64,000 nucleotides of DNA from a bacterium. GTDB taxonomy: Bacteria; SZUA-182; DTGQ01. Both the position numbers and the translations under genes were made by a program. Positions 24,973 through 46,415 of this stretch are shown here, piece by piece (the stretch's first letter is position 1; every line of letters starts with the position of its first letter). The stretch lies in contig JBFLZW010000002.1 in assembly GCA_040755755.1 (NCBI GenBank), forward strand, positions 66,397 through 130,396. The letters are read 5' to 3'. The notes under the pieces are model-generated. The model worked only from the letters and a program-made list of their open reading frames with translations, was not told the origin of the DNA and did not search any database.

Positions 24973-26034
24973 ATGAAGAAGTGCAATTCCCTGGGTCGGC
25001 TGCTGGTAATTTCAACCGCTTATACTGTGCTCTTATTCCTGCTGACTATGACTATCTCGCCTGGCAACTGCCAGGTACCGTCTTCCTACCCATATACCAC
25101 GTATCCTTATACAACGTATCCGACCGGCACTACGAGCGGATATCCCTACACGGTGTATCCGAGCCAATCTGCTACATCTTACTCTTACTCACCGCTGACA
25201 GGTTACACTGTTAATCCCTATACTCAGGCGACTGCCGCGGTCCCTTATGGGACCACATACGGGACTACCTATCCGCAGTATGGTACTTCCTATACTACGG
25301 TGCCATCCTACGGCACTTCGGCCTATGGCCTGCCTGTATATGGTACTTCCGGATATAATATCCTGGTGATCGCTGCTCCTTCGAATTCTTATACCAATCC
25401 CTTATCCTCGTATCCTGCCATAAGTACCTATCCAGGCACATATCCTTTTGATGGCAGAATAGCGGCCATTTATCTGCCGACGCAGAGCACCTATCCTGCG
25501 TATCCGACATACCCTGCGTATCCTGCGTATCCGACGACGCCTGCGTATTCGACCTATCCGACCTATCCTGCGTATCCGACGACGCCTGCGTATTCGACAT
25601 ACCCGACCTATCCGACATACCCGACATATTCTACGTATCCGACCTATCCGACATACCCGACGACACAGACGTATCCGACCACACCTACCTATTCAACGAG
25701 TGTATCGGGCGGGTGGAGCGGTTCCTGGGTAAGTAACGGAACCCAGGGAGGCGCTTCTCTTACCCTGACTCAGAGCGGAACCACGCTGACTGGCACGATA
25801 AACCTTACATCTTCGAATGGTCAGGCCAAATTGAACGCCAATGTCAATGGAAGCATGAGCGGTACTACCCTGCAGCTTTGGGCAACTATTAATGGAGGTA
25901 CGGATATCTTCAACCTGAGTATCATCGGAAACATTAACGGAACCGTGCTGAACGGCAATTACCGGATTACCAACAACAGCAGTATCGAGCTGGAATCCGG
26001 GACGCTTAACCTGGTCAAATCATCGCTCTATTAA
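24973..26034 (+). CDS. Secreted Tyr/Thr/Pro-rich repeat protein (TYP(A/T)YP tandem repeats) with a C-terminal Thr/Asn/Gly-rich beta-like domain
   Basis: Signal peptide, then PAYPTYPAYPAYPTTPAYSTYPTYP... encoded by tandem DNA repeats at 25490-25680. RBS ggtaaggagatcaag. Confidence 0.7.
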   Translation: MKKCNSLGRLLVISTAYTVLLFLLTMTISPGNCQVPSSYPYTTYPYTTYPTGTTSGYPYTVYPSQSATSYSYSPLTGYTVNPYTQATAAVPYGTTYGTTYPQYGTSYTTVPSYGTSAYGLPVYGTSGYNILVIAAPSNSYTNPLSSYPAISTYPGTYPFDGRIAAIYLPTQSTYPAYPTYPAYPAYPTTPAYSTYPTYPAYPTTPAYSTYPTYPTYPTYSTYPTYPTYPTTQTYPTTPTYSTSVSGGWSGSWVSNGTQGGASLTLTQSGTTLTGTINLTSSNGQAKLNANVNGSMSGTTLQLWATINGGTDIFNLSIIGNINGTVLNGNYRITNNSSIELESGTLNLVKSSLY

Positions 26035-26592: not shown

Positions 26593-26668
26593 TCTCCCGC
26601 AGAGACGCAGAGGCGCAGAGAATGACCCAAAATGATATCCTCTGCGCCTTTGCGTCTCTGCGGGAGAA
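26593..26668. repeat. 76-bp palindromic element, family C (CTCCCGCAGAGACGCAGAG...CTCTGCGTCTCTGCGGGAG)
   Basis: tctcccgcagagacgcagaggcgcagagaatgacccaaaatgatatcctctgcgcctttgcgtctctgcgggaga. Second copy at 32563-32638. The arms are shared with the MITEs at 37030 and 46140. Confidence 0.7.
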
Positions 26669-26763
26669 ATACCAAACAGCACAGGAATTCCCGCTCCCGC
26701 TTAAAACCTGCGGGAACAAGCATCGCGGGAAAGAGGGGTATACAAACAGGAAAACAGCACCTG

Positions 26764-32499: not shown

Positions 32500-32562
32500 G
32501 GGGGAGGGAGACGATATAAGGAATTCGCTTTTATGGGAAAGATGACACGGCAGTGTTGTATT

Positions 32563-32638
32563 TCTCCCGCAGAGACGCTGAGACGCAGAGGATATCATTT
32601 TTGGTCATTCTCTGCGCCTCTGCGCGTCACTGCGAGAG
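32563..32638. repeat. 76-bp palindromic element, family C copy
   Basis: ctcccgcagagacgctgagacgcagaggatatcatttttggtcattctctgcgcctctgcgcgtcactgcgagag. Confidence 0.7.
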
Positions 32639-33645: not shown

Positions 33646-34434
33646 ATGGACATGACTACCGTACTTATCTTAGCCTGGCAAAACCCGCATAATCGTGGAT
33701 GGGTGCCTGTCGGAAGATTGCAGTATAAGGGTACTCGATACATCTTCCAATATACCATTGGCGCAAAACAAGCAAAAGACTTCGTGCCATTTAACCTGAT
33801 GACTGATTTAGCCAGTTCATACGAGTCAGAAGAGTTGTTTCCGATTTTTCAGAATAGGCTGCTCTCGAAATCGAGGCCGGAATATAATGACTACCTAAAT
33901 TGGCTCAGCCTGGAAAAAGATACAATTTCCCCTTTCGAAGAGCTCGCCAGGACAGGAGGAATCAGAGCCACTGATTCCCTCCAATTGTTTCCGATTCCCG
34001 AAGAGAGAAATGGAAAGTATGAAGTCATATTTTTCGCTCATGGGATCAGTCACTTGGCACCTGGCTATATTGAAAAGGTTAATCAGCTCAGTCAGGGAAC
34101 GAAGCTCTATGTAATGAGAGATATTCAAAACGAATTTGCCCCTTATGCACTTACCTTGAGAACCGGTGACACCCGGGAAATCGCAGGTTACTGTCCAAGA
34201 TTTTTTACCCGGGATTTCGGGAGGCTGATTGATATTAACGGCGCAGAAAATGTGGAAGTTACCGTTGTTAAGGTTAATGTAAACTCACCATTACAATTTA
34301 AGCTGCTCTGTAAGTTGAGCACATCCTGGCCAAGTAAATTTGTCCCTTTTGCGGATGAAATCTTTCAGCCCATCATAGACAGAGAAGACATACAAAAACC
34401 GGCAAAGGCCAAAGGCATCGACATCAAACCATGA
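33646..34434 (+). CDS. HipA N-terminal-domain-like protein (HipS-like N-region plus a ~150-aa extension)
   Basis: LILAWQNPHNRGWVPVGRLQY...FQY and LFPIFQNRLLSKSRPEY resemble HipA N-terminus (VTWMNNQRVGEL...FKY and VFNFFDNLLPDSPIVRDRI). ATGA overlap with the next gene. Confidence 0.4.
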   Translation: MDMTTVLILAWQNPHNRGWVPVGRLQYKGTRYIFQYTIGAKQAKDFVPFNLMTDLASSYESEELFPIFQNRLLSKSRPEYNDYLNWLSLEKDTISPFEELARTGGIRATDSLQLFPIPEERNGKYEVIFFAHGISHLAPGYIEKVNQLSQGTKLYVMRDIQNEFAPYALTLRTGDTREIAGYCPRFFTRDFGRLIDINGAENVEVTVVKVNVNSPLQFKLLCKLSTSWPSKFVPFADEIFQPIIDREDIQKPAKAKGIDIKP

Positions 34435-36974
34435 TCTCAGAAAAACCTCTACCTCAGACAGATCTATTCCAGTCCCTGCCGGAAGAGGCACGGAATCAAC
34501 TGAAGAGCTTCTTTACCCTCAAAAAATTTCAGGCGGGTGATGTGATCATCCGTCAGGGGAGCAGGGAGACTCAGTATTTCTATATCGTTGCATCTGGACT
34601 GGTGGAGCTTTTCGTTGATGAGGAGGATGGCTCCCGGATTCATCTGGCCTCCATAGGCCCTGGTGATTACTTTGGCGAGCGGGCACTGCTGGTGGAGGAG
34701 GACAGCTCCTGCAACGTCGTTGCCCGTGAGGATACGGAGGTCTATGTCCTCACCAGGGAGCATTTTTATCAGTTTCTGACCGCCCATCCTGAATTGAGCC
34801 GTCACTTCGTCTGGACCTTTACCCAGCGCCTTCACAGAACCAACCTGCTCCTTGAGGAAAAGGAATACAAGGAGGCCATGATCGACCTCCTTTCCGAAGA
34901 GTACAAACCGTACACCGAAGCCATTTTTATTGCCAGAAGCCGCGCCATGCGGCCGGTGCTTGAAGGTATCAGGCGGGCGGCCAGTAATTCTTCGCCTGTC
35001 CTGATCGAGGGTGAATACGGGTCCGGCAAGCAACTTTTGGCCCGCCAGATTCATGCCAAAACGGCGCGATGGAGGAAAGCCTTTATCCTGGTGGACTGCG
35101 GTGCACTGATGGAGGAGGAAAACCGGGAAGAAAGTCTCTTTGGCCGGGAGCATGGCCAGCCGTTTCACCTTTCGGAGCATGCCTTTGGGTATCTTGAGCT
35201 GGCTGAGGGCGGAACCCTGTTCCTGAAAAATATCGATCAGCTTTCTCTTGAGGTCCAGCAGCGGATCCGGGAAGTAGTTGAAACCGGGTCTTACACCCGG
35301 CTTGGGTCAACGCAGGTCCGGAAGGCTGACTTTCGGCTCATAGCCAGCACCCGCGCGAACTTACGTGAAAAGGCCGCAGCGGGGGAATTTGATTCCAGGC
35401 TCTACGGGCTTTTGAGCGCCAATCATATCCAGTTGCCCCCCTTGCGAGAGCGCAAGAACGCTATCCCCAAGCTGGTCGATTACTTTATCAAAAAATATGC
35501 CAGACTGGTCAATAAAAACGTTACCGGCGCTACGCCGGAAGCCATGCAGGCACTCCTGAAGCATGATTATAAGCTTGGCAATATCAAGGAGCTCGAACAG
35601 ATCATCGAGCGTGCCGTTGCGCTGCCGAGCGATGATAAAATCTGGCCGCGACATCTTTTCCTTGGGGCTCCGGCTGTCAGGCCGGATAGCTGGTATTTTA
35701 ACCTTTTGAAAATCAAGCCCTTTGGCCGATGGGTGATGAATAAGATCTATCCGGACAAGCTTCAGTATGCAACTGCAACCTTCTTTATGCTCCTGATTCT
35801 TCTCTGCTTTCTGGGACCGGCGAGCGCAGCACGCAACCCTGCCGCTTTTCTGGTCTGGCGGGTCTGGTGGCCGATGATGTTCCTGTCATTTTTCTGGGTT
35901 GGCCGCACCTGGTGCTCTATCTGCGCCTATGCGGCTTTTGGCCGCAAGTTTCAAAAGCTCAAGCAGTATCAGCTTCCTGTTCCCGCATTTATCCGGGACC
36001 ATGATGCCCTTCTGGTAACCCTGGCCTTTCTGACCATTCTCTGGGCTGAAGAGATCACCCACATGCGCTCCTCACCCAGGGCCACGGGTTGGCTGATGGT
36101 CACCATGCTGTCTCTGGCTATGGTCAGTGCGGTCATTTTCCGGCGGGAGAGCTGGTGTCGATACTTGTGCCCTATGGGCGGGCTGATCGGGGTCTGCTCC
36201 ATGAGCTCCATTATTGAGCTGCGCTCTGATACCACGCTCTGCGCAAACCAGTGCAAGGGGGCCGAGTGCTATAACGGGACCCCGGAAAACCCCGGCTGTC
36301 CTCTCTTTCAGCACCTGCTCTTTGTTGATAACAATCAGAATTGCAAATTATGTTTGCAGTGCATCAGAAACTGCCCCAACCATTCGGCATCCCTGAACCT
36401 TCGTCTGCCGGGGCGTGAAATATGGCTTTCCAATCAGGTTCGTGACAAAATGTCATTCTTTGTCTGTGCCCTGCTTGGATCCCTTGTGCCGGTCATTTAC
36501 CTTGAAGCCAGGAACATTACTCTGCAGGGGGGAAGGGTGAAAGCGCTCTACACCCTGGCCCATTTCCTGCTCCCGGTTATTGTAGCCGCAATACTGTATA
36601 TTCCCGGCCTGCTCAGTTCTCCCGGAACAAAATCCCTCAATTGGCTTCGCTTCTGGCATACCTCGTATGCCTATGTTCCCCTGGCCCTGGCAGCTCACCT
36701 TGCCCACCAGATGCAGTTTGTTCCCGGCGGAGAATATTTCCAATACCTCATCCGGTCAAGGGCTGGTGGAATAATCCAGGGGCCAATTGTTCAACCGCTC
36801 CAGACAATGGCTCTGATTTCGGGATTGTTATTTTCCTGGTTTTGCCTGTGGCAGATCTACCAGCATCGACGGCAGAAGAAAACCTTCGAGGCGCAATGGT
36901 GTTTCTGGCTGGGGCATGCTTTTTTGATGAGTCTTTATGCAGCTATGGTATTTCATCTGATGGTTTTTCGGTAG
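34431..36974 (+). CDS. Multidomain fusion: cNMP-binding domain, then a sigma54-interaction-type AAA+ domain with degenerate GAFTGA and no HTH, then a NapH/RdxA-like membrane polyferredoxin
   Basis: cNMP pocket GDYFGERALL. Walker A GEYGSGKQLLARQIH. ESLFGREHGQPF sits where ESLFGHEKGAFTGA is expected. More than 8 TM helices carry WCSICAYAAFG, SWCRYLCPMGG and CKLCLQCIRNCP (CxxCxxCxxxCP). Confidence 0.65.
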   Translation: MISEKPLPQTDLFQSLPEEARNQLKSFFTLKKFQAGDVIIRQGSRETQYFYIVASGLVELFVDEEDGSRIHLASIGPGDYFGERALLVEEDSSCNVVAREDTEVYVLTREHFYQFLTAHPELSRHFVWTFTQRLHRTNLLLEEKEYKEAMIDLLSEEYKPYTEAIFIARSRAMRPVLEGIRRAASNSSPVLIEGEYGSGKQLLARQIHAKTARWRKAFILVDCGALMEEENREESLFGREHGQPFHLSEHAFGYLELAEGGTLFLKNIDQLSLEVQQRIREVVETGSYTRLGSTQVRKADFRLIASTRANLREKAAAGEFDSRLYGLLSANHIQLPPLRERKNAIPKLVDYFIKKYARLVNKNVTGATPEAMQALLKHDYKLGNIKELEQIIERAVALPSDDKIWPRHLFLGAPAVRPDSWYFNLLKIKPFGRWVMNKIYPDKLQYATATFFMLLILLCFLGPASAARNPAAFLVWRVWWPMMFLSFFWVGRTWCSICAYAAFGRKFQKLKQYQLPVPAFIRDHDALLVTLAFLTILWAEEITHMRSSPRATGWLMVTMLSLAMVSAVIFRRESWCRYLCPMGGLIGVCSMSSIIELRSDTTLCANQCKGAECYNGTPENPGCPLFQHLLFVDNNQNCKLCLQCIRNCPNHSASLNLRLPGREIWLSNQVRDKMSFFVCALLGSLVPVIYLEARNITLQGGRVKALYTLAHFLLPVIVAAILYIPGLLSSPGTKSLNWLRFWHTSYAYVPLALAAHLAHQMQFVPGGEYFQYLIRSRAGGIIQGPIVQPLQTMALISGLLFSWFCLWQIYQHRRQKKTFEAQWCFWLGHAFLMSLYAAMVFHLMVFR

Positions 36975-37029: not shown

Positions 37030-37295
37030 GAATGTCACTTACATAAGCCAAGCTTATAATTATAGAGAGAACACAAAGCGCACAGGGAAAAACGATCTCC
37101 CGCAGAGACGCAGAGGCGCAGAGAACAACCAATCCGACAAGGCCCTGATGAAAGTCGGGATATGCCGATGTGTCAACGGCCTGGAAGCAAGCAAAAAGTA
37201 AAAAGGCACAAGGAGGAACTTATTTTACTCTTACTTTTCAATGACATCCTCTGCGTCTCAGCGTCTCTGCGGGAGAATTACTAATTCTTATGTAA
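37030..37295 (+). mobile_element. MITE-like element (266 bp) with terminal inverted repeats and a 9-bp target-site duplication
   Basis: TIR gaatgKcacttacataag. TSD atttaaacg at 37021-37029 and 37296-37304. Internal family-C palindrome arms. Near-identical inverted copy at 46140-46415. Confidence 0.75.
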
Positions 37296-37349
37296 GTGCC
37301 ATTCGATTTAAACGCCATTCAAGATAAAAAGAAGGGAGGCTTTTTGAGC

Positions 37350-38193: not shown

Positions 38194-38580
38194 ATGCAGG
38201 TAGTTACTGCCGCGGTTATTGAAAAAGGTGGTAAGCTCCTGATTGCTCGAAGGAGGAAAGGGGACCACCTGGAAAATAAGTGGGAATTTCCTGGAGGCAA
38301 ATTAGAGCGGGGAGAAACTCCGGAGCAATGCCTGAGAAGAGAGCTGTTCGAAGAGTTTGGCATTGAGACGAGGATCGGAGACTTTATCTGCTCAAGCAGA
38401 TTTGTGTACAGCCACATCTCCATCGAGTTATTGGCTTACCGGGCAGAGCATCTCTCCGGAGAGTTTACCGTGCATGAACATGAAGAAATACGATGGGTAT
38501 GGCCACGCGAACTTGAAGCTTATGATTTTGCCGATGCGGATATTCCTATCGTTAAGAAATTGGTGCAGGGTTGCCCATAG
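38194..38580 (+). CDS. NUDIX hydrolase (MutT-like)
   Basis: Nudix box GGKLERGETPEQCLRRELFEEFGI. Confidence 0.85.
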   Translation: MQVVTAAVIEKGGKLLIARRRKGDHLENKWEFPGGKLERGETPEQCLRRELFEEFGIETRIGDFICSSRFVYSHISIELLAYRAEHLSGEFTVHEHEEIRWVWPRELEAYDFADADIPIVKKLVQGCP

Positions 38581-38700: not shown

Positions 38701-39360
38701 ATGACCTGGGATGACTTTTTGGATAACCGGCATGGGAGCGGCTTTGGGATTCAGAAAAGAGAGGCAATTTCGAAATACCCGCTCCTCTCCAAAGAGGCTC
38801 TTTCCTCTCGAGATTACCGTTTTTTTGAGGATTGCTTCCCCAATAAGGAAAAGTGGCGGTTATTCGATGAATTTAAAGGTCATGTGGCCTACCTGGACAT
38901 TGAAACCACAGGTTTATCCCCCTGGGAGGGCTCCATAACCGTCATAGGTTTGTACGATGGAGAACAAGCGAAAACCTTCGTTCAGGGAGACAATCTTCAG
39001 GCGTTTACTGATGAAATAGAACGATACAAAATGATAGTCACCTTTAATGGGGCGCGGTTTGATATACCATTTATCAAACAATCCCTCAACGCGCGACTGG
39101 ACCAGATCAATATTGATCTCATGTACCCTTTAAAGCGGCTTGGCTATTCAGGAGGCTTAAAAGCAATTGAGCAAACGCTTGGCATCTTTCGCCCGATTGA
39201 GATTGGAAATATAGATGGTCTTGAGGCTGTGAGGCTTTGGTTTGAATATCACAGAAAGGGTAATCAAAGAGCACTGGAAAGGCTCATAAAATATAATCTT
39301 GAGGATACAAGAAACCTCAAGGGGTTAATGGAACTGGTTTACGAGAGGCTCAAAGAGTGA
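38701..39360 (+). CDS. RNase H-like superfamily 3'-5' exonuclease (YprB-like)
   Basis: AYLDIETTGL DEDD-like motif and FNGARFDIPF. Confidence 0.6.
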   Translation: MTWDDFLDNRHGSGFGIQKREAISKYPLLSKEALSSRDYRFFEDCFPNKEKWRLFDEFKGHVAYLDIETTGLSPWEGSITVIGLYDGEQAKTFVQGDNLQAFTDEIERYKMIVTFNGARFDIPFIKQSLNARLDQINIDLMYPLKRLGYSGGLKAIEQTLGIFRPIEIGNIDGLEAVRLWFEYHRKGNQRALERLIKYNLEDTRNLKGLMELVYERLKE

Positions 39361-39811: not shown

Positions 39812-40189
39812 ATGAAGGCTACAGCTATTAAAGAGCAAAGAACAGGGGCATTGATTCCTTCGGAAACGATTTCTGCTGTTATCCGGGCTATCGCTGAGAG
39901 CTTCTCCCCCCAGAAAATTATTCTCTTTGGCTCATATGCATCAGGGCATCCAACACCAGACAGTGATCTTGATCTTTTGGTCATTATGGAGAGTGACCTG
40001 CCGCGACACAAACGGGCTGTCCCGATTCGGCGGCTTTTTCGTCCGACTCCCTGCGCCATGGATATCCTGGTTTATACGCCGCAGGAGGCGGAATACTGGA
40101 ATGGGGTAGCTAACCACATTATTACCGAGGTATTCGAAACGGGAAAGGTTGTGTATGAAAGACCAAACAATGAGAGATCGAAACCGTGA
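39812..40189 (+). CDS. Nucleotidyltransferase-domain protein (MntA-like antitoxin)
   Basis: LFGSYASGHPTPDSDLDLLV. Confidence 0.75.
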   Translation: MKATAIKEQRTGALIPSETISAVIRAIAESFSPQKIILFGSYASGHPTPDSDLDLLVIMESDLPRHKRAVPIRRLFRPTPCAMDILVYTPQEAEYWNGVANHIITEVFETGKVVYERPNNERSKP

Positions 40190-40578
40190 GTTGGCCCTGC
40201 AATGGCTGAAAAAGGCAGATCACGACCTGATCACGGCCAGACAAACCCTTGCACTGCCGGATGGCCCGACCGATACTCCCTGCTTTCATGCCCAGCAGGC
40301 TGTGGAAAAAGCATTAAAGGGCTATACTGACTTTTCATCAGATTGCTTTCCCCAAGATTCATGACCTGATGAGGCTCATAGATATGGTAATCCCCTCATT
40401 GCCAGCTTTGGAAGGTTGCCGAGAGTCACTGGCTGAATTGTCGGAGTATGCAGTAGAGATCCGTTATCCAGGAGATTGGTTTGAACCCTTACGGAGTGAA
40501 GCAGAAAAAGCTTTTGCAGTTGCTGAGCAGGTTGTGAATATGGCCAGGGAGTATATGGCAGATAAAATGCAAAAATGA
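40155..40578 (+). pseudogene. HEPN-domain protein gene interrupted by a frameshift near 40325-40335
   Basis: Frame A reads ...HAQQAVEKALKGY then a stop. The +1 frame continues TFHQIAFPKIHDLMRLIDMV...EIRYP, which is HEPN. Confidence 0.6.
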
Positions 40579-40605: not shown

Positions 40606-41178
40606 TTAAGCCCGTGAAATATAGCGTACATCCCGGGTATCAATCTTGATCCTTTCCCCTTCTTTCATATAACTTGGCACCTGGAGCGTCAGGCCGGTCT
40701 CGGTCCGGGCCGTTTTGCTCTGGGCTTGAGCCGTCGCTCCCTTGATCACCGGATCGCATTCGACGATGGTTTGCTCCACAACCTGGGGGAGATCGACATT
40801 GACCACATTCCCCTTATAGATATGCAGGATAACATCCAGGCCATCCATCAGAAACAGTTTCCGGTCCCCGATAGTTTCCTCCGACAGGCTCACCTGATCA
40901 TAGGTTTCCTTATCCATAAAGACAAAATCTCTCCCGTCGGCATAGAGAAACTGGCCGCTTCGTCGCTCGAAATCGGGCTGCTCTACCTTGTCACCCCCCC
41001 GGAAGGATTTGTCGAATACCTGCCCGGTGAGTAAATTCCTGCACTTGACCTTGACAAACATATTTGCCCCGCGTGCCGAAGGGGTCTGAAAAGCCAGATC
41101 AAGGACTTCAAAGGGAGCATCATCTATCTGGAAAATTTCACCTCGCTTCAGGTCATTTACCACTATTACACCCGCCAT
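40606..41178 (-). CDS. efp: Elongation factor P
   Basis: 190 aa, recognised by overall EF-P similarity. Confidence 0.95.
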   Translation of the reverse strand: MAGVIVVNDLKRGEIFQIDDAPFEVLDLAFQTPSARGANMFVKVKCRNLLTGQVFDKSFRGGDKVEQPDFERRSGQFLYADGRDFVFMDKETYDQVSLSEETIGDRKLFLMDGLDVILHIYKGNVVNVDLPQVVEQTIVECDPVIKGATAQAQSKTARTETGLTLQVPSYMKEGERIKIDTRDVRYISRA

Positions 41179-41404
41179 CCTTCTTTCTCCTCCTTATATC
41201 ATGTGGCTACCCTTGGTAATCGTAAATTTACAGAGTTTTTTCTTCGGAGTATACTGGTATCCTGACCTTCCGTCAAGAGGTTGGTTGTCGCCAATAAATT
41301 TGTTTCCGTTTGACCTGCAAAGTATGGTATTCTACGAGCATTAGGTTATCCAAGGGCCTATTAATGTTACTGGATTCTAGCCTGAAGCTTATGGAGATCG
41401 AATT

Positions 41405-42559
41405 ATGATTGTCTCTCGCCTTATCCTCAAGAATTGGCGTAACTTCCAATCAGTAGACGTCCAATTGGGCGATCGGGTTTTTTTGGTTGGCCCGAATGCA
41501 TCGGGCAAATCGAACCTGCTCGATGTGTTCCGCTTTCTGCGAGATATTGCTACCAGGCAGGGAGGAGGTTTGCAGAAGGCAGTCAAGGACCGGGGTGGAA
41601 TATCTAAGATACGCTGCCTGGCTGCTCGGAGATTCCCGAATATTGAAATTGAAATCCACCTGGCTGAAGCTGCCGGTAAGGGGCCACTTTGGAAGTACGG
41701 CATTGGGATTACCCAGGAAACCAGTGGCTACCGCCAGCCAATTCTGGCCTACGAGCGGGTATGGGAGCGGCAGGAAGGCGACTTGCTCATCCGCCCGGAT
41801 AATCAGGATAGAAAAGACAAGGTGCGGCTGACTCAGACACACCTGGAGCAAATTAATGCTAATAAGTGCTTTAGAGGCATCGCTGAATTCTTTGAATCCG
41901 TTCTCTATCTGCATCTTGTGCCTCAACTGCTCCGCCACCCTGAAGCTTTCTCAGGGCCTGGCATTTCAGGAGACCCCTTTGGCCGGAGTTTTTTGGAACG
42001 TGTTGCCTTAATGCCTTCCAAATCCCGTACTTCACGTTTAAAGAAGATTGAGGAGGCTCTCCGCGTTGCAGTTCCACAACTAAAGCAGCTTACCTTTCAA
42101 AAAGATGAGCTCGGCATCCCGCATCTTGAGGCAATTTATGAACATTGGAGGCCCAAGGGGGCCAAGCAGCGTGAAGATCTTTTCTCCGATGGTACCTTGC
42201 GACTGATCGGCATGCTTTGGTCACTTCTTGAGGGAGATTCATTATTGCTGCTTGAGGAACCGGAGCTATCGTTAAACTCCGGTATTGTCAGCAAACTGCC
42301 CGGCCTGATGGCTAAACTGCACAGGGCAAAAAAAAGGCAGATTATTCTCAGTACTCACAGCGCTGATCTGCTTTCGGACAAGGGCATAGGCGGTGAAGAG
42401 GTTCTTCTCTTAACTCCTGACCCGGAAGGCACAAAGGTTGAAGAGGCATCCTCTATTCAGGAGATAAAGGACCTGCTTGAAGGAGGATTGAGCATAGCCG
42501 AGGCAGCCCTGCCTCGAACAGTACCCCGGGGAATAATTCAACTGGAGCTTTTTAAATGA
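41405..42559 (+). CDS. AAA_21/ABC-type ATPase (OLD/AriA-like) of a putative two-gene defence module
   Basis: Walker A GPNASGKSNLLD, Walker B LLLLEEPE, ILSTHS. 384 aa. Confidence 0.75.
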   Translation: MIVSRLILKNWRNFQSVDVQLGDRVFLVGPNASGKSNLLDVFRFLRDIATRQGGGLQKAVKDRGGISKIRCLAARRFPNIEIEIHLAEAAGKGPLWKYGIGITQETSGYRQPILAYERVWERQEGDLLIRPDNQDRKDKVRLTQTHLEQINANKCFRGIAEFFESVLYLHLVPQLLRHPEAFSGPGISGDPFGRSFLERVALMPSKSRTSRLKKIEEALRVAVPQLKQLTFQKDELGIPHLEAIYEHWRPKGAKQREDLFSDGTLRLIGMLWSLLEGDSLLLLEEPELSLNSGIVSKLPGLMAKLHRAKKRQIILSTHSADLLSDKGIGGEEVLLLTPDPEGTKVEEASSIQEIKDLLEGGLSIAEAALPRTVPRGIIQLELFK

Positions 42560-43056
42560 CAGTACCCATCTCCATCGACATTGCCGTCGAAGATTCACTC
42601 AGCGAGGCGGTTTTACGAAAAGTCATTGATCAATCAGGACGGCATTGGCAGGTTGGTACCTGCCACCAGAGGGGTGGCTTTGGCTATTTGAAGCAAAAAA
42701 TAGAAGGATTTAACTCTGCCGCCAAAGGGAAACCTTTTTTGGTGCTCACAGACCTTGACAGGGCAGATTGCCCGATTGCACTCATTCAGGAATGGCTGAC
42801 GGTTCCCAGACATCCTGACCTGCTGTTTCGAGTGGCAGTAAGGGAGGTTGAATCATGGCTTCTGGCCGACCGCACCGGGTTAGCTCAATTCCTTGGCATA
42901 CAGGAATCGCTGGTGCCGGGTGATCCTGATACGATTCCGGACCCAAAACAGTGCTTGATTAGCCTCGCAAGAAAGTCGCGATATCGGGCTTTGCGTTCGG
43001 ATATCGTTCCATTACCCGGAAGTACCGCAAAACAGGGTCGAAATTACAATGGGTGA
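42556..43056 (+). CDS. DUF4276-family (Toprim-like) partner protein
   Basis: IAVEDSLSE (the VEG-E equivalent), LVLTDLD (DxD), REVESWLLAD (EFEAWLLAD-type motif). ATGA overlap with the ATPase gene. Confidence 0.65.
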   Translation: MTVPISIDIAVEDSLSEAVLRKVIDQSGRHWQVGTCHQRGGFGYLKQKIEGFNSAAKGKPFLVLTDLDRADCPIALIQEWLTVPRHPDLLFRVAVREVESWLLADRTGLAQFLGIQESLVPGDPDTIPDPKQCLISLARKSRYRALRSDIVPLPGSTAKQGRNYNG

Positions 43057-43475
43057 CTAATCTCATTTGTCCAAAAATCCTGGGACCATTGGATAGCCAT
43101 GCATCACTCACCCAGTCTGTACCGTACAGTAAACGCCATTGCTCAATTTCAACTAAACCAGTAAAATTCATCCTGTCTTCTTCAGTGGCATGACAATTGC
43201 TATTTTATACTGCATGAGGTGAATTTTTCTTTCCCATTACCGTGCCCTTAAGGTCGCAGAAAAAAATTTTTGCGTAATCATGCCGGTCAAGTGAAGAAAA
43301 TTCCCAAGTGGATTGATTCTCAGGACGAAATCATTTATAGTAGGGTTACTTTTTTATGCCCTGTGCAACTCTGCTCTTTGCCAGTACATTTTATACTCCA
43401 CGAGAAACAGACTTCATCTCGAATAATACTTGAAATGATTTAATATGGACGATAGTAAGAGGAGATTCATTTCTT

Positions 43476-46139: not shown

Positions 46140-46415
46140 GAATGGCACTTACATAAGAATTAGTAATTCTCCCGCAGAGACGCTGAGACGCAGAGGATAT
46201 CATTGAAAAGTAAAAGTAAAACAAGTTCCTCCTTGTGCCTTTTTACTTTTTGCTTGCTTCCAGGCCGTTGACACATCGATATATCCCGACTTTCATCAGG
46301 ACCTTGCCGGATTGGTTGTTCTCTGCGTCTCTGCGTCTCTGCGGGAGATATTTTTTTCCCTGTGTGCTTTGTGTCCTCTCTATATTATAAGCTTGGCTTA
46401 TGTAAGTGCCATTCG
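46140..46415 (-). mobile_element. Second MITE copy (inverted orientation), approximate 7-8 bp target-site duplication GTCTARG
   Basis: Reverse complement is near-identical to 37030-37295. Flanks are gtctaggg and gtctaagc. Confidence 0.75.

Follow-up and report, generated by a model that had tools for sequence, protein, structure and literature searches.

Two adjacent genes, here designated A and B, raise the question of whether they encode a new kind of defence system, in which an ATPase is paired with a small Toprim-like nuclease, and whether such a system still operates in this bacterium. The pair was analysed within a 64,000-nucleotide stretch of DNA (the window), for which the original prediction had described an AAA_21-type ATPase followed by a DUF4276 protein. 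The reading frames of 384 and 166 amino acids, and the ATGA overlap that joins them, are present in the sequence, as are all of the motifs that had been picked out, namely Walker A and B in A, and IAVEDSLSE, LVLTDLD and REVESWLLAD in B. The features of the two genes are as follows.

41405–42559, + strand: gene A, intact, for an ABC ATPase of HEC-01A type and 384 aa (Pfam AAA_21)
41489–41512, + strand: Walker A motif of gene A, GPNASGKS, residues 29–36 (read from the sequence)
Codon 261 of gene A, + strand: signature-like motif SDGT (read from the sequence)
42242–42259, + strand: Walker B motif of gene A, LLLLEE, residues 280–285 (read from the sequence)
Codon 316 of gene A, + strand: H-loop motif STHS (read from the sequence)
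42544–42547, + strand: GGAG before the gene B start (read from the sequence)
42556–42559, + strand: ATGA shared by the stop codon of A and the start codon of B (read from the sequence)
42556–43056, + strand: gene B as now read, 166 codons, HEC-01B/DUF4276 Toprim protein, putative nuclease
42589–42591, + strand: E12 of gene B, conserved column
42751–42759, + strand: D66-L-D68 of gene B, conserved columns
42841–42852, + strand: R96-E-V-E99 of gene B, conserved columns

Gene A is preceded by its own GGAG, 8 nt 5' of the ATG, and the ATGA overlap between A and B is, as judged from the sequence, one of translational coupling.

A Pfam profile search confirmed the predicted class of A, with 132 bits for AAA_21 (cut-off 27), and the N-terminus of the protein also matched AAA_15. 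The Walker A, signature-like, Walker B and H-loop motifs are all intact. Sequence and structure prediction together support an SMC/Rad50-like ABC ATPase with the head fold expected of that group, the structure model being only moderately confident (pLDDT 64) and so used at fold level only. In an NCBIfam search, A gave only generic ABC matches and a MAD3 match below threshold.

When the PADLOC profiles were searched, both proteins matched the models for HEC-01. The A protein matched HEC-01A (PDLC04180) at 4.4e-157 and 521 bits, with residues 1–382 covering profile positions 1–380 of 382, and B matched HEC-01B (PDLC04194) at 7e-57 and 190.5 bits, over profile positions 1–164 of 204. Moreover, HEC-01 calls for adjacent, co-oriented genes, and the two genes here lie on the same strand with a 4-nt overlap. 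HEC-01 stands for Hma-embedded candidate 01 and entered PADLOC-DB in version 2 (Payne et al., bioRxiv 10.1101/2024.01.29.577857). The proposal that this pairing had not been characterised experimentally must consequently be withdrawn, since the pair is already in PADLOC-DB as HEC-01 and members have been tested in published work. The published phage tests disagree: HEC-01 from Pseudomonas agarici gave no protection (Payne et al., 10.1101/2024.01.29.577857), whereas Escherichia coli was protected by a cold-seep HEC-01 against one or more of T4, T5 and T7. In the microbes of cold seeps, HEC-01 is reported to rank with the most abundant candidate systems. The pair is of this already catalogued kind, and is an ordinary, probably inactivated copy of it; the family-level identity, as read from the sequence profiles, is the firmest part of the explanation developed here.

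The assignment of B to DUF4276 holds for the family more clearly than for the protein itself. B aligned with the Pfam DUF4276 profile (PF14103) over residues 17–129 (profile positions 11–139 of 192) with an E-value of 6.9e-5 and 23.6 bits, which is below the curated gathering cut-off of 30.2 bits, and an intact relative (P0002) likewise reached only 23.9 bits. Across the family, 29 of the 32 aligned B members matched PF14103 at E<1e-3 (best 1.5e-8), which is indicative of remote homology; these 32 members matched no other Pfam family, and several B family members carry the NCBI name ‘DUF4276 family protein’. B matched no family in NCBIfam, and comparison with solved structures by sequence returned nothing meaningful.

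The structure prediction for B favours a Toprim fold of the OLD type. It has an alternating β-α core of four strands that is structurally similar to solved Toprim domains. The acidic residues comprise a Glu after strand 1, a DxD after strand 3 and R96-E97-x-E99 after strand 4; in the family alignment E12, D66 and E99 are invariant, and D68 and E97 nearly so. The metal site of HEC-01B has been described as the same as that of Bp OLD (Payne et al., bioRxiv 10.1101/2024.01.29.577857), and the residue-level match of B to the OLD site is taken from that description of HEC-01B. Together, the predicted fold and these residues support the view that B is a small OLD-type Toprim protein and a predicted metal-dependent nuclease.

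How the pair relates to other systems of an ATPase and a Toprim protein was considered next. The resemblance to OLD, Gabija and PARIS that had been suggested is borne out at the level of this general logic. HEC-01 is the closest counterpart, being likewise a co-oriented AAA_21/AAA_15 ABC ATPase gene followed by a DUF4276/TOPRIM gene, with its own profiles fitting both proteins. The window pair nevertheless belongs to a different subfamily (PDLC04180, PDLC04194) from the tested P. agarici pair, its B gene is truncated, and it lies outside any Hma, MADS or R-M locus, a setting in which HEC-01 was discovered but which the model does not require; Pfam and PADLOC searches found no R-M or Hma matches near the pair. 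The Mad3/Mad4 pair of Pseudomonas aeruginosa, part of its methylation-associated defence system (MADS), is also an ABC ATPase and a DUF4276 Toprim protein. Deletion of mad3 or mad4 reduces MADS defence, and both are needed for full defence. However, A scored only 63.7 bits against the MAD3 equivalog NF047739 (cut-off 420), and the pair stands alone, with no mad1, mad2 or mad5–8 among its neighbours in the window.

The remaining systems are more distant. In the OLD proteins (P2 Old class 1, and class 2) and in GajA the ATPase and Toprim domains are fused, whereas they are encoded by two genes here; a search of solved structures by sequence matched A only to the P-loop region of GajA and OLD (1e-5), and there is no GajB/UvrD-like partner near the window pair, as there would be in Gabija. 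PARIS differs in that AriB is of the DUF4435 type and is about 300 aa long, as against DUF4276 and about 200 aa for the B family; neither DUF4435 nor AriB was matched by B in Pfam or PADLOC. According to its published description, PARIS is frequently carried by viral genomes, whereas the subfamily of the window pair had no confirmed match among 2.9 million viral contigs and no close match among phage records. The tRNA-Lys target, Ocr trigger and hexameric scaffold are features of PARIS. AbiL resembles the pair in consisting of an AAA_21-type ATPase followed by a small protein of the Toprim superfamily, and A indeed matched the PADLOC AbiLi model (2e-21). AbiLii is an RloB-type partner, however, and B gave no RloB or AbiLii match in Pfam or PADLOC. 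The PARIS paper annotates RloB (PF13707) and DUF4276 as separate domains in its tree, and places both Mad3/Mad4 and AbiL among the ABC ATPase plus TOPRIM systems.

The surrounding DNA was also compared with that of relatives. In the window the pair is flanked by efp, a broken NTase/HEPN pair and a gene of SLT/LysM type, and the features around genes A and B are as follows.

39812–40189, strand not given: NTase gene, neighbour of the pair
40149–40364 and 40369–40578, strand not given: HEPN domain, split over two frames
40606–41178, − strand: efp, neighbour of the pair
41298–43282, strand undefined: acquired segment of ~2 kb holding A and B only, in the ancestral efp–SLT intergenic region (bounds good to roughly ±15 nt)

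The decayed NTase/HEPN neighbours and efp are thus as they had been described, with HEPN broken across two frames. In two relatives (L087 and L088) efp and SLT are adjacent and divergent, 420–600 nt apart, and lack A and B. The window can be aligned with the DNA between these two genes as far as ~41297, and the alignment resumes from ~43283; these empty sites therefore show the pair to be an insertion of roughly 2 kb. The same comparison revises the ‘AT-rich intergenic region’ that had been noted downstream, which consists mostly of the ancestral promoter DNA of the gene that follows. A conserved stretch 3' of B was considered as a structured RNA and rejected (no Rfam match, folding z-score −0.06), being better explained as the SLT promoter. 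A scan for terminators found none, and promoter-like sites occurred only at the chance rate. No convincing terminal repeats were found at the ends of the insert, the best being an inverted pair of 17 nt and 82% identity at 41360/43155 that probably arose by chance. Neither mobility genes nor a GC anomaly were found in the insert, and no tRNA gene lies within 25 kb of the pair. The idea of the efp–SLT site as a defence hotspot was also rejected, as relatives have either an empty site or housekeeping genes there.

The pair is widespread. At least 549 HEC-01 relatives were found in a search of ~186,000 species genomes, and in a set of 80 species-representative genomes, which span many bacterial phyla and some archaea, an A homologue (57–75% identical) lies directly 5' of B in every locus with room for it. 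In all 74 loci in which both reading frames were called, A and B are immediate neighbours in the same orientation; at 65 of these junctions they overlap by 1–14 nt (by 4 nt in 37) and at three they abut. The A proteins of this bacterium and of ANME-1 archaea share 70% identity, which is indicative of horizontal spread.

Whether the family serves in phage defence is less clear-cut. The description of the locus as a small defence islet is weak: about one-tenth of the homologous loci (about 7 of 77) are embedded in R-M-like or Hma-type defence genes, whereas housekeeping genes, ilvC, gatB, gyrB, TGT and TatD among them, make up ~90% of the immediate neighbours in the 77 loci. The only other defence-like matches in the window come from a NUDIX protein (candidate PDC-S07), from the broken HEPN and, weakly, from the NTase, and clustering of 524 neighbours revealed no conserved third partner gene. 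These housekeeping surroundings would fit an alternative in which the main role of the pair lies outside phage defence, either in housekeeping or selfish nucleic-acid processing, akin to the ATPase/nickase Cran1, or as an addiction-type toxin module. An OLD-family ATPase-nuclease with a role in the cell cycle does exist, in the form of the archaeal, chromosome-associated Cran1, and two relatives that have diverged still carry the pair at the same site. The scarcity of the subfamily on mobile elements also counts against defence: beyond its absence from the viral contigs, there is one distant match in sequenced phages (26% identity) and one in plasmids (a Ralstonia megaplasmid, 50% identity). 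The failed P. agarici HEC-01 points the same way, with the reservation that A is only 24% identical to its HEC-01A and B is related to it at profile level only.

On the other side, four to five loci have the order Mod-A-B-Res, with the pair set between the genes of a type III R-M system, one further locus adjoins an HmaA/BrxH-like SNF2 helicase and one adjoins a type I REase-like gene. The positive cold-seep HEC-01 assay and the need for Mad3/Mad4 in MADS are likewise counted for a defence role. Moreover, a patchy, cross-domain distribution at 60–75% identity, taken together with the empty sites, argues for an accessory, horizontally moving pair and not a core one, and the repeated loss of B described below argues against an essential role. 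A main role outside phage defence is accordingly considered unlikely, and defence by an ATPase-controlled nuclease is the reading carried forward.

At the end of gene B the following features were identified.

43054–43056, + strand: premature TGA, in frame with B at its codon 167, context GGG TGA CTA (from translation)
43057–43164, + strand: cut-off rest of gene B, with 35 codons in frame and then TAA, C-terminal helices LISFVQKSWDHWIAMHHSPSLYRTVNAIAQFQLNQ (from the family alignment)
43162–43164, + strand: TAA closing the cut-off rest, in frame with B

A 166-aa protein had been reported, and the reading frame is indeed of that length; what had been missed is that it ends at a premature stop. 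Homologues of B are ~200–210 aa long, and 70 of the 74 keep 196–212 aa. When the TGA at codon 167 is read through, the HEC-01B score rises from 190.5 to 227.4 bits (+37) and the match extends to profile positions 1–198 of 204. The 35 codons that follow the TGA align with the C-terminus of the family, including the invariant L168, F171, V172, W176 and L188. In the model of an intact relative, B is a single compact domain (pTM 0.87), and the part that is cut off here corresponds to helices 164–174, 178–182 and 186–197, modelled with high confidence (pLDDT 92–96). In the homologues, the codon-167 column is occupied by Q, R, P, C, K, A, G or E. An alternative genetic code in which TGA specifies an amino acid was rejected, as TGA ends 16 of the 39 long reading frames, including A. 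Taken together, the alignment and the model suggest that the TGA removes three C-terminal helices, and that the system is for this reason most likely disabled here.

This conclusion depends on the stop codon being real. The source is a metagenome-assembled genome, the rest of B is undamaged, and two close relatives carry an intact B (202 aa in L002 and 209 aa in L085), all of which would be expected if the assembly or its consensus were wrong at this codon, or the TGA only a minority allele, and B were in fact intact at 202 aa. However, the same TGA is present in the NCBI protein of the metagenome-assembled genome and in a Logan contig that occurs in three samples, with the qualification that these samples and the assembled genome may share reads or derive from one population. 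In addition, the TGA differs at all three positions from the CAG of L002, so a single miscalled base would not account for it, and consensus substitution errors are uncommon. A false stop is therefore regarded as highly improbable.

A second alternative accepts the stop and holds that the system still works in this bacterium, either through partial read-through of the TGA or because the 166-aa protein is sufficient. All of the conserved acidic residues of B precede the stop, A is fully intact, the allele recurs in the contig from the three samples, and the 35 codons past the stop show no further damage and are still conserved. The dN/dS of these codons was 0.36, against 0.19 before the stop, two values that are not distinguishable in a comparison underpowered by only 16 differences. 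The TGA is followed by C, and UGA-C is a comparatively leaky terminator in E. coli. Against this, TGA is an ordinary stop in this genome, the lost part contains the five invariant residues and the three helices, and full-length B is kept by nearly all of the homologues. Elsewhere in the family, nonsense codons in B were found at positions 21, 176 and 184, a scatter that suggests decay and not a programmed site. Continued function here is thus thought rather unlikely, though somewhat less so than a role outside defence.

Nonsense codons in B were detected in four lineages, namely the window and the loci L037, L069 (at the invariant Trp176) and L075, and none was found in A among 75 complete copies. 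Since A is 1.9 times longer than B, the chance that all four would fall in B, if nonsense codons arose in proportion to gene length, is 0.345^4, or ~0.014. One account of this bias is adaptive: selection may disarm a self-toxic nuclease while retaining an independently useful ATPase, or the leaky UGA-C may act here as a ‘safety catch’ that permits trace amounts of full-length nuclease. Both versions are very doubtful; if either were true, HEC-01 would be a case of adaptive effector attenuation.

The explanation that is favoured, by a modest balance of probability, is that of an acquired HEC-01 cassette for ATPase-controlled nuclease defence that has been disabled here by the TGA at codon 167. 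The cassette, with its two genes and ~2 kb, would have been acquired horizontally and landed between efp and the gene for a lytic transglycosylase. By analogy with PARIS and with P2 OLD, which is a tRNase held in an inactive oligomer, A and B would be made together through translational coupling, and the ATPase would hold the nuclease inactive and serve as the infection sensor. A phage-derived trigger would then free or activate B, which would cleave tRNA or DNA of both host and phage and so abort the infection. The trigger, the substrate and the A–B complex itself are all inferred from this analogy. The TGA would represent a recent inactivation of a costly effector, with similar, independent events in other lineages.

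A standard PADLOC run would label the pair HEC-01, and as a discovery it is therefore of little value. Conservation within its subfamily is strong, both across bacterial phyla and in ANME archaea, yet its A protein shares only the low identity noted above with the representative that failed. The comparison with empty sites and the restriction of nonsense codons to B provide a small piece of evidence that, in this family, the nuclease is the costly part.

The predicted pair of an AAA_21-type ATPase (gene A) and a small DUF4276/Toprim-like nuclease (gene B) is a real feature whose architecture had been read correctly. Both ORFs were recovered at the positions first assigned to them, as were all of the quoted motifs and the ATGA overlap shared by the A stop and B start codons. 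The features concerned are:

41405–42559, + strand, gene A, ORF of 384 aa
42556–43056, + strand, gene B as now read, ORF of 166 aa
43054–43056, + strand, premature in-frame TGA of B, from translation

A carries GPNASGKS, SDGT, LLLLEE and STHS, and B carries IAVED, LVLTDLD and REVESWLLAD; a GGAG lies 8–10 nt 5′ of both start codons. HMM analysis bore out the ATPase call, with A matching Pfam AAA_21 at 132 bits, far over the cut-off. The DUF4276 call for B stands in part: a Pfam match exists, but at 23.6 bits it lies below the 30.2 cut-off. Published work places DUF4276 in the Toprim superfamily. Gene order, coupling, folds and conserved catalytic-type residues are established for the pair.

Specific PADLOC-DB models exist for both proteins, and the pair is a candidate system already catalogued. 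A is HEC-01A by model PDLC04180 (full length, 4.4e-157) and B is HEC-01B by model PDLC04194 (7e-57). HEC-01, ‘Hma-embedded candidate 01’, comprises an ABC ATPase plus a TOPRIM protein, and the metal site of Burkholderia OLD is also present in the latter (Payne et al.). The MADS defence system includes a DUF4276 protein, Mad4, and an ATPase, Mad3, and defence is weakened if either gene is deleted; in the PARIS paper, ‘MADS3-4’ and AbiL are both listed as ABC ATPase plus TOPRIM systems. The original prediction held that such a pairing was not experimentally characterised, but HEC-01 family members from Pseudomonas agarici and from cold seeps have already been assayed. The P. agarici system failed to protect against a BASEL subset or against several classic coliphages, and the cold-seep system protected E. 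coli B from at least one of T4, T5 and T7, with an effect size not quantified for HEC-01. The P. agarici system differs from the window pair in belonging to a separate subfamily, with 24% identity in A and only profile-level relatedness in B, around the DxD and RExE motifs.

As judged from its sequence, B is a truncated form, a point overlooked in the original prediction. Almost all of the top-scoring 120 among 1908 B homologues are 200–217 aa long; one entry alone has 166 aa, and this is the protein of the window itself, taken from an NCBI MAG that carries the label ‘bacterium’. If the TGA at 43054–43056 is read through, the frame stays open for 35 more codons until a TAA at 43162–43164, and these codons match the family C-terminus column for column, including the invariant L168, F171, V172, W176 and L188. 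With them included, B scores 227.4 instead of 190.5 bits against the HEC-01B profile, and coverage grows from positions 1–164 to 1–198 of 204. Recoding of the TGA as a sense codon was excluded because TGA is an ordinary stop here, terminating 16 of 39 long ORFs of the genome, A among them. A Logan contig known from three samples has the identical TGA. In the close relative L002, where codon 167 of B is CAG, B is intact (202 aa, 79% identical) and is followed in the same order by an SLT/LysM (lytic transglycosylase) gene whose product is 82% identical to that of the window; B of a further relative, L085, is 209 aa. Compared with L002, B has a dN/dS of 0.19 up to the stop; the 0.36 beyond it comes from 16 differences and does not discriminate. 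The lesion is probably recent, since secondary damage is absent, and the window copy of HEC-01 is probably disabled.

A scan of species-representative genomes gave at least 549 relatives, and 80 loci were fetched. These come from bacteria (Cyanobacteria, Acidobacteriota, Desulfobacterota, Planctomycetota, KSB1, Gemmatimonadota and others) and archaea (ANME-1, ANME-2 and haloarchaeal MAGs). An A homologue (57–75% identical) lies immediately 5′ of B in every locus with room, identity being 70% between the window bacterium and ANME-1 archaea, and the two genes overlap by 1–14 nt in 65 of 74 loci (by 4 nt in 37 of those). When 524 neighbours were clustered, no third gene proved to be conserved. 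The 145 immediate neighbours include six mad2-type methylase matches, about four type III methylases and seven ResIII; the remainder have housekeeping roles (ilvC, gatB, gyrB, TGT and TatD, for example). Roughly one-tenth of these loci are embedded in R-M-like systems, as judged from Mod-A-B-Res order at L007, L018, L041 and L054, Res at +1 at L026, an HmaA/BrxH-like SNF2 helicase at +1 at L040 and a type I REase-like neighbour at L071. Viral contigs did not yield the A-B subfamily, and there was a single match (26%) among sequenced phages and another among plasmids, on a Ralstonia megaplasmid. The pair is accessory and horizontally spread. At one otherwise HEC-01-type locus (L049, 9758–10594, Candidatus Competibacteraceae MAG) most of A is deleted, and the first ∼ 80 ATPase residues, through the Walker A region, are fused in frame straight to the B nuclease.

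The local history was followed by a comparison anchored on the SLT/LysM protein. L087 and L088 are related more distantly (efp 85–86% and SLT 64–66% identical); in both, efp and SLT are divergent neighbours separated by 420–600 nt, and A-B is absent. Because their intergenic DNA aligns to the window on both flanks, until ∼ 41297 on the efp promoter side and again from ∼ 43283 on the SLT promoter side, the alignment identifies A-B as an insertion of roughly 2 kb with no other cargo. It lacks terminal repeats and a GC anomaly, and neither a tRNA gene nor an integrase accompanies it. In L086, a third relative, the genes 5′ of SLT are housekeeping ones, so the site does not look like a general defence hotspot. 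The proposed ‘defence islet’ is thin: the only other defence-like matches in the window are a NUDIX protein, a weak NTase match and a frame-split HEPN. The NTase gene (39812–40189) is followed by HEPN pieces in two reading frames, 40149–40364 (profile positions 3–42) and 40369–40578 (positions 66–116); this second disrupted accessory module adjoining efp (39812–40578) is missing in L087 and L088. The NUDIX (MutT-like) protein (128 aa, 38194–38580) is a full-length match (8e-47) to PDC-S07, a single-gene candidate in PADLOC, and adjoins an RNase_H_2-superfamily exonuclease-like gene (38701–39360).

Other elements lie nearby. A 220 nt inverted repeat pair (37085–37304 and 46140–46359, 95% complementary, 8.8 kb between) encloses A-B. 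The repeat has no Rfam match and looks like a MITE, since each copy has its own 28 nt terminal inverted repeats (37096–37123 and 37249–37276). By sequence comparison the 46.1 kb copy is an insertion, because the queD-ispG gap is 541 nt in the window versus 179 nt in L086. Upstream of the SLT/LysM gene, 43288–43435 (core 43300–43345) is conserved above the level of flanking coding DNA; it holds GATTGATTCTCAGGACGAAATCATTTATAGTA, near-identical across four relatives, a promoter-like TTGATT-17-TATAGT and an inverted repeat TGATT...AATCA. It matches no Rfam family and shows no excess of RNA structure; it is therefore probably a promoter with an operator. An 847-aa protein (34431–36974) is an unusual fusion, with PycTIR and TIR-effector model matches at its N-terminus (∼ 22–165), RtcR/PspF-type matches centrally (residues ∼ 155–404) and a C-terminal half that is hydrophobic and cysteine-rich by eye. 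A tandem array at 25489–25704 has a 9 nt period and a 72 nt unit in 16 overlapping copies, and a second inverted repeat pair (88 nt, 85% complementary) lies at 26593–26680 and 32550–32637, 5.9 kb apart.

An ATPase-Toprim architecture is no guarantee of a defence function, since the OLD-family protein Cran1 has a cell-cycle role. In P2 OLD, opening of an inactive oligomer uncovers the Toprim site, and tRNA is cleaved as a result. The analogy with PARIS and P2 OLD suggests that the A ATPase may restrain the B nuclease and sense a trigger; released B would then cut tRNA or DNA, and infection would be aborted.

Nonsense codons interrupt B in three further loci, with conserved sequence continuing past each stop: a TGA at codon 184 in L037, a TAG at the invariant Trp176 in L069 and a TGA at codon 21 in L075. 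These are independent, in three species-representative genomes, and the paired ATPase genes have none. No stop or frameshift was seen in any of 75 complete copies of A, though A is 1.9 times longer than B; by our own arithmetic, with hits assumed proportional to gene length, all four nonsense hits would fall in B by chance with a probability of ∼ 0.014. From these few events we infer a pattern that fits B being a costly, self-toxic component.
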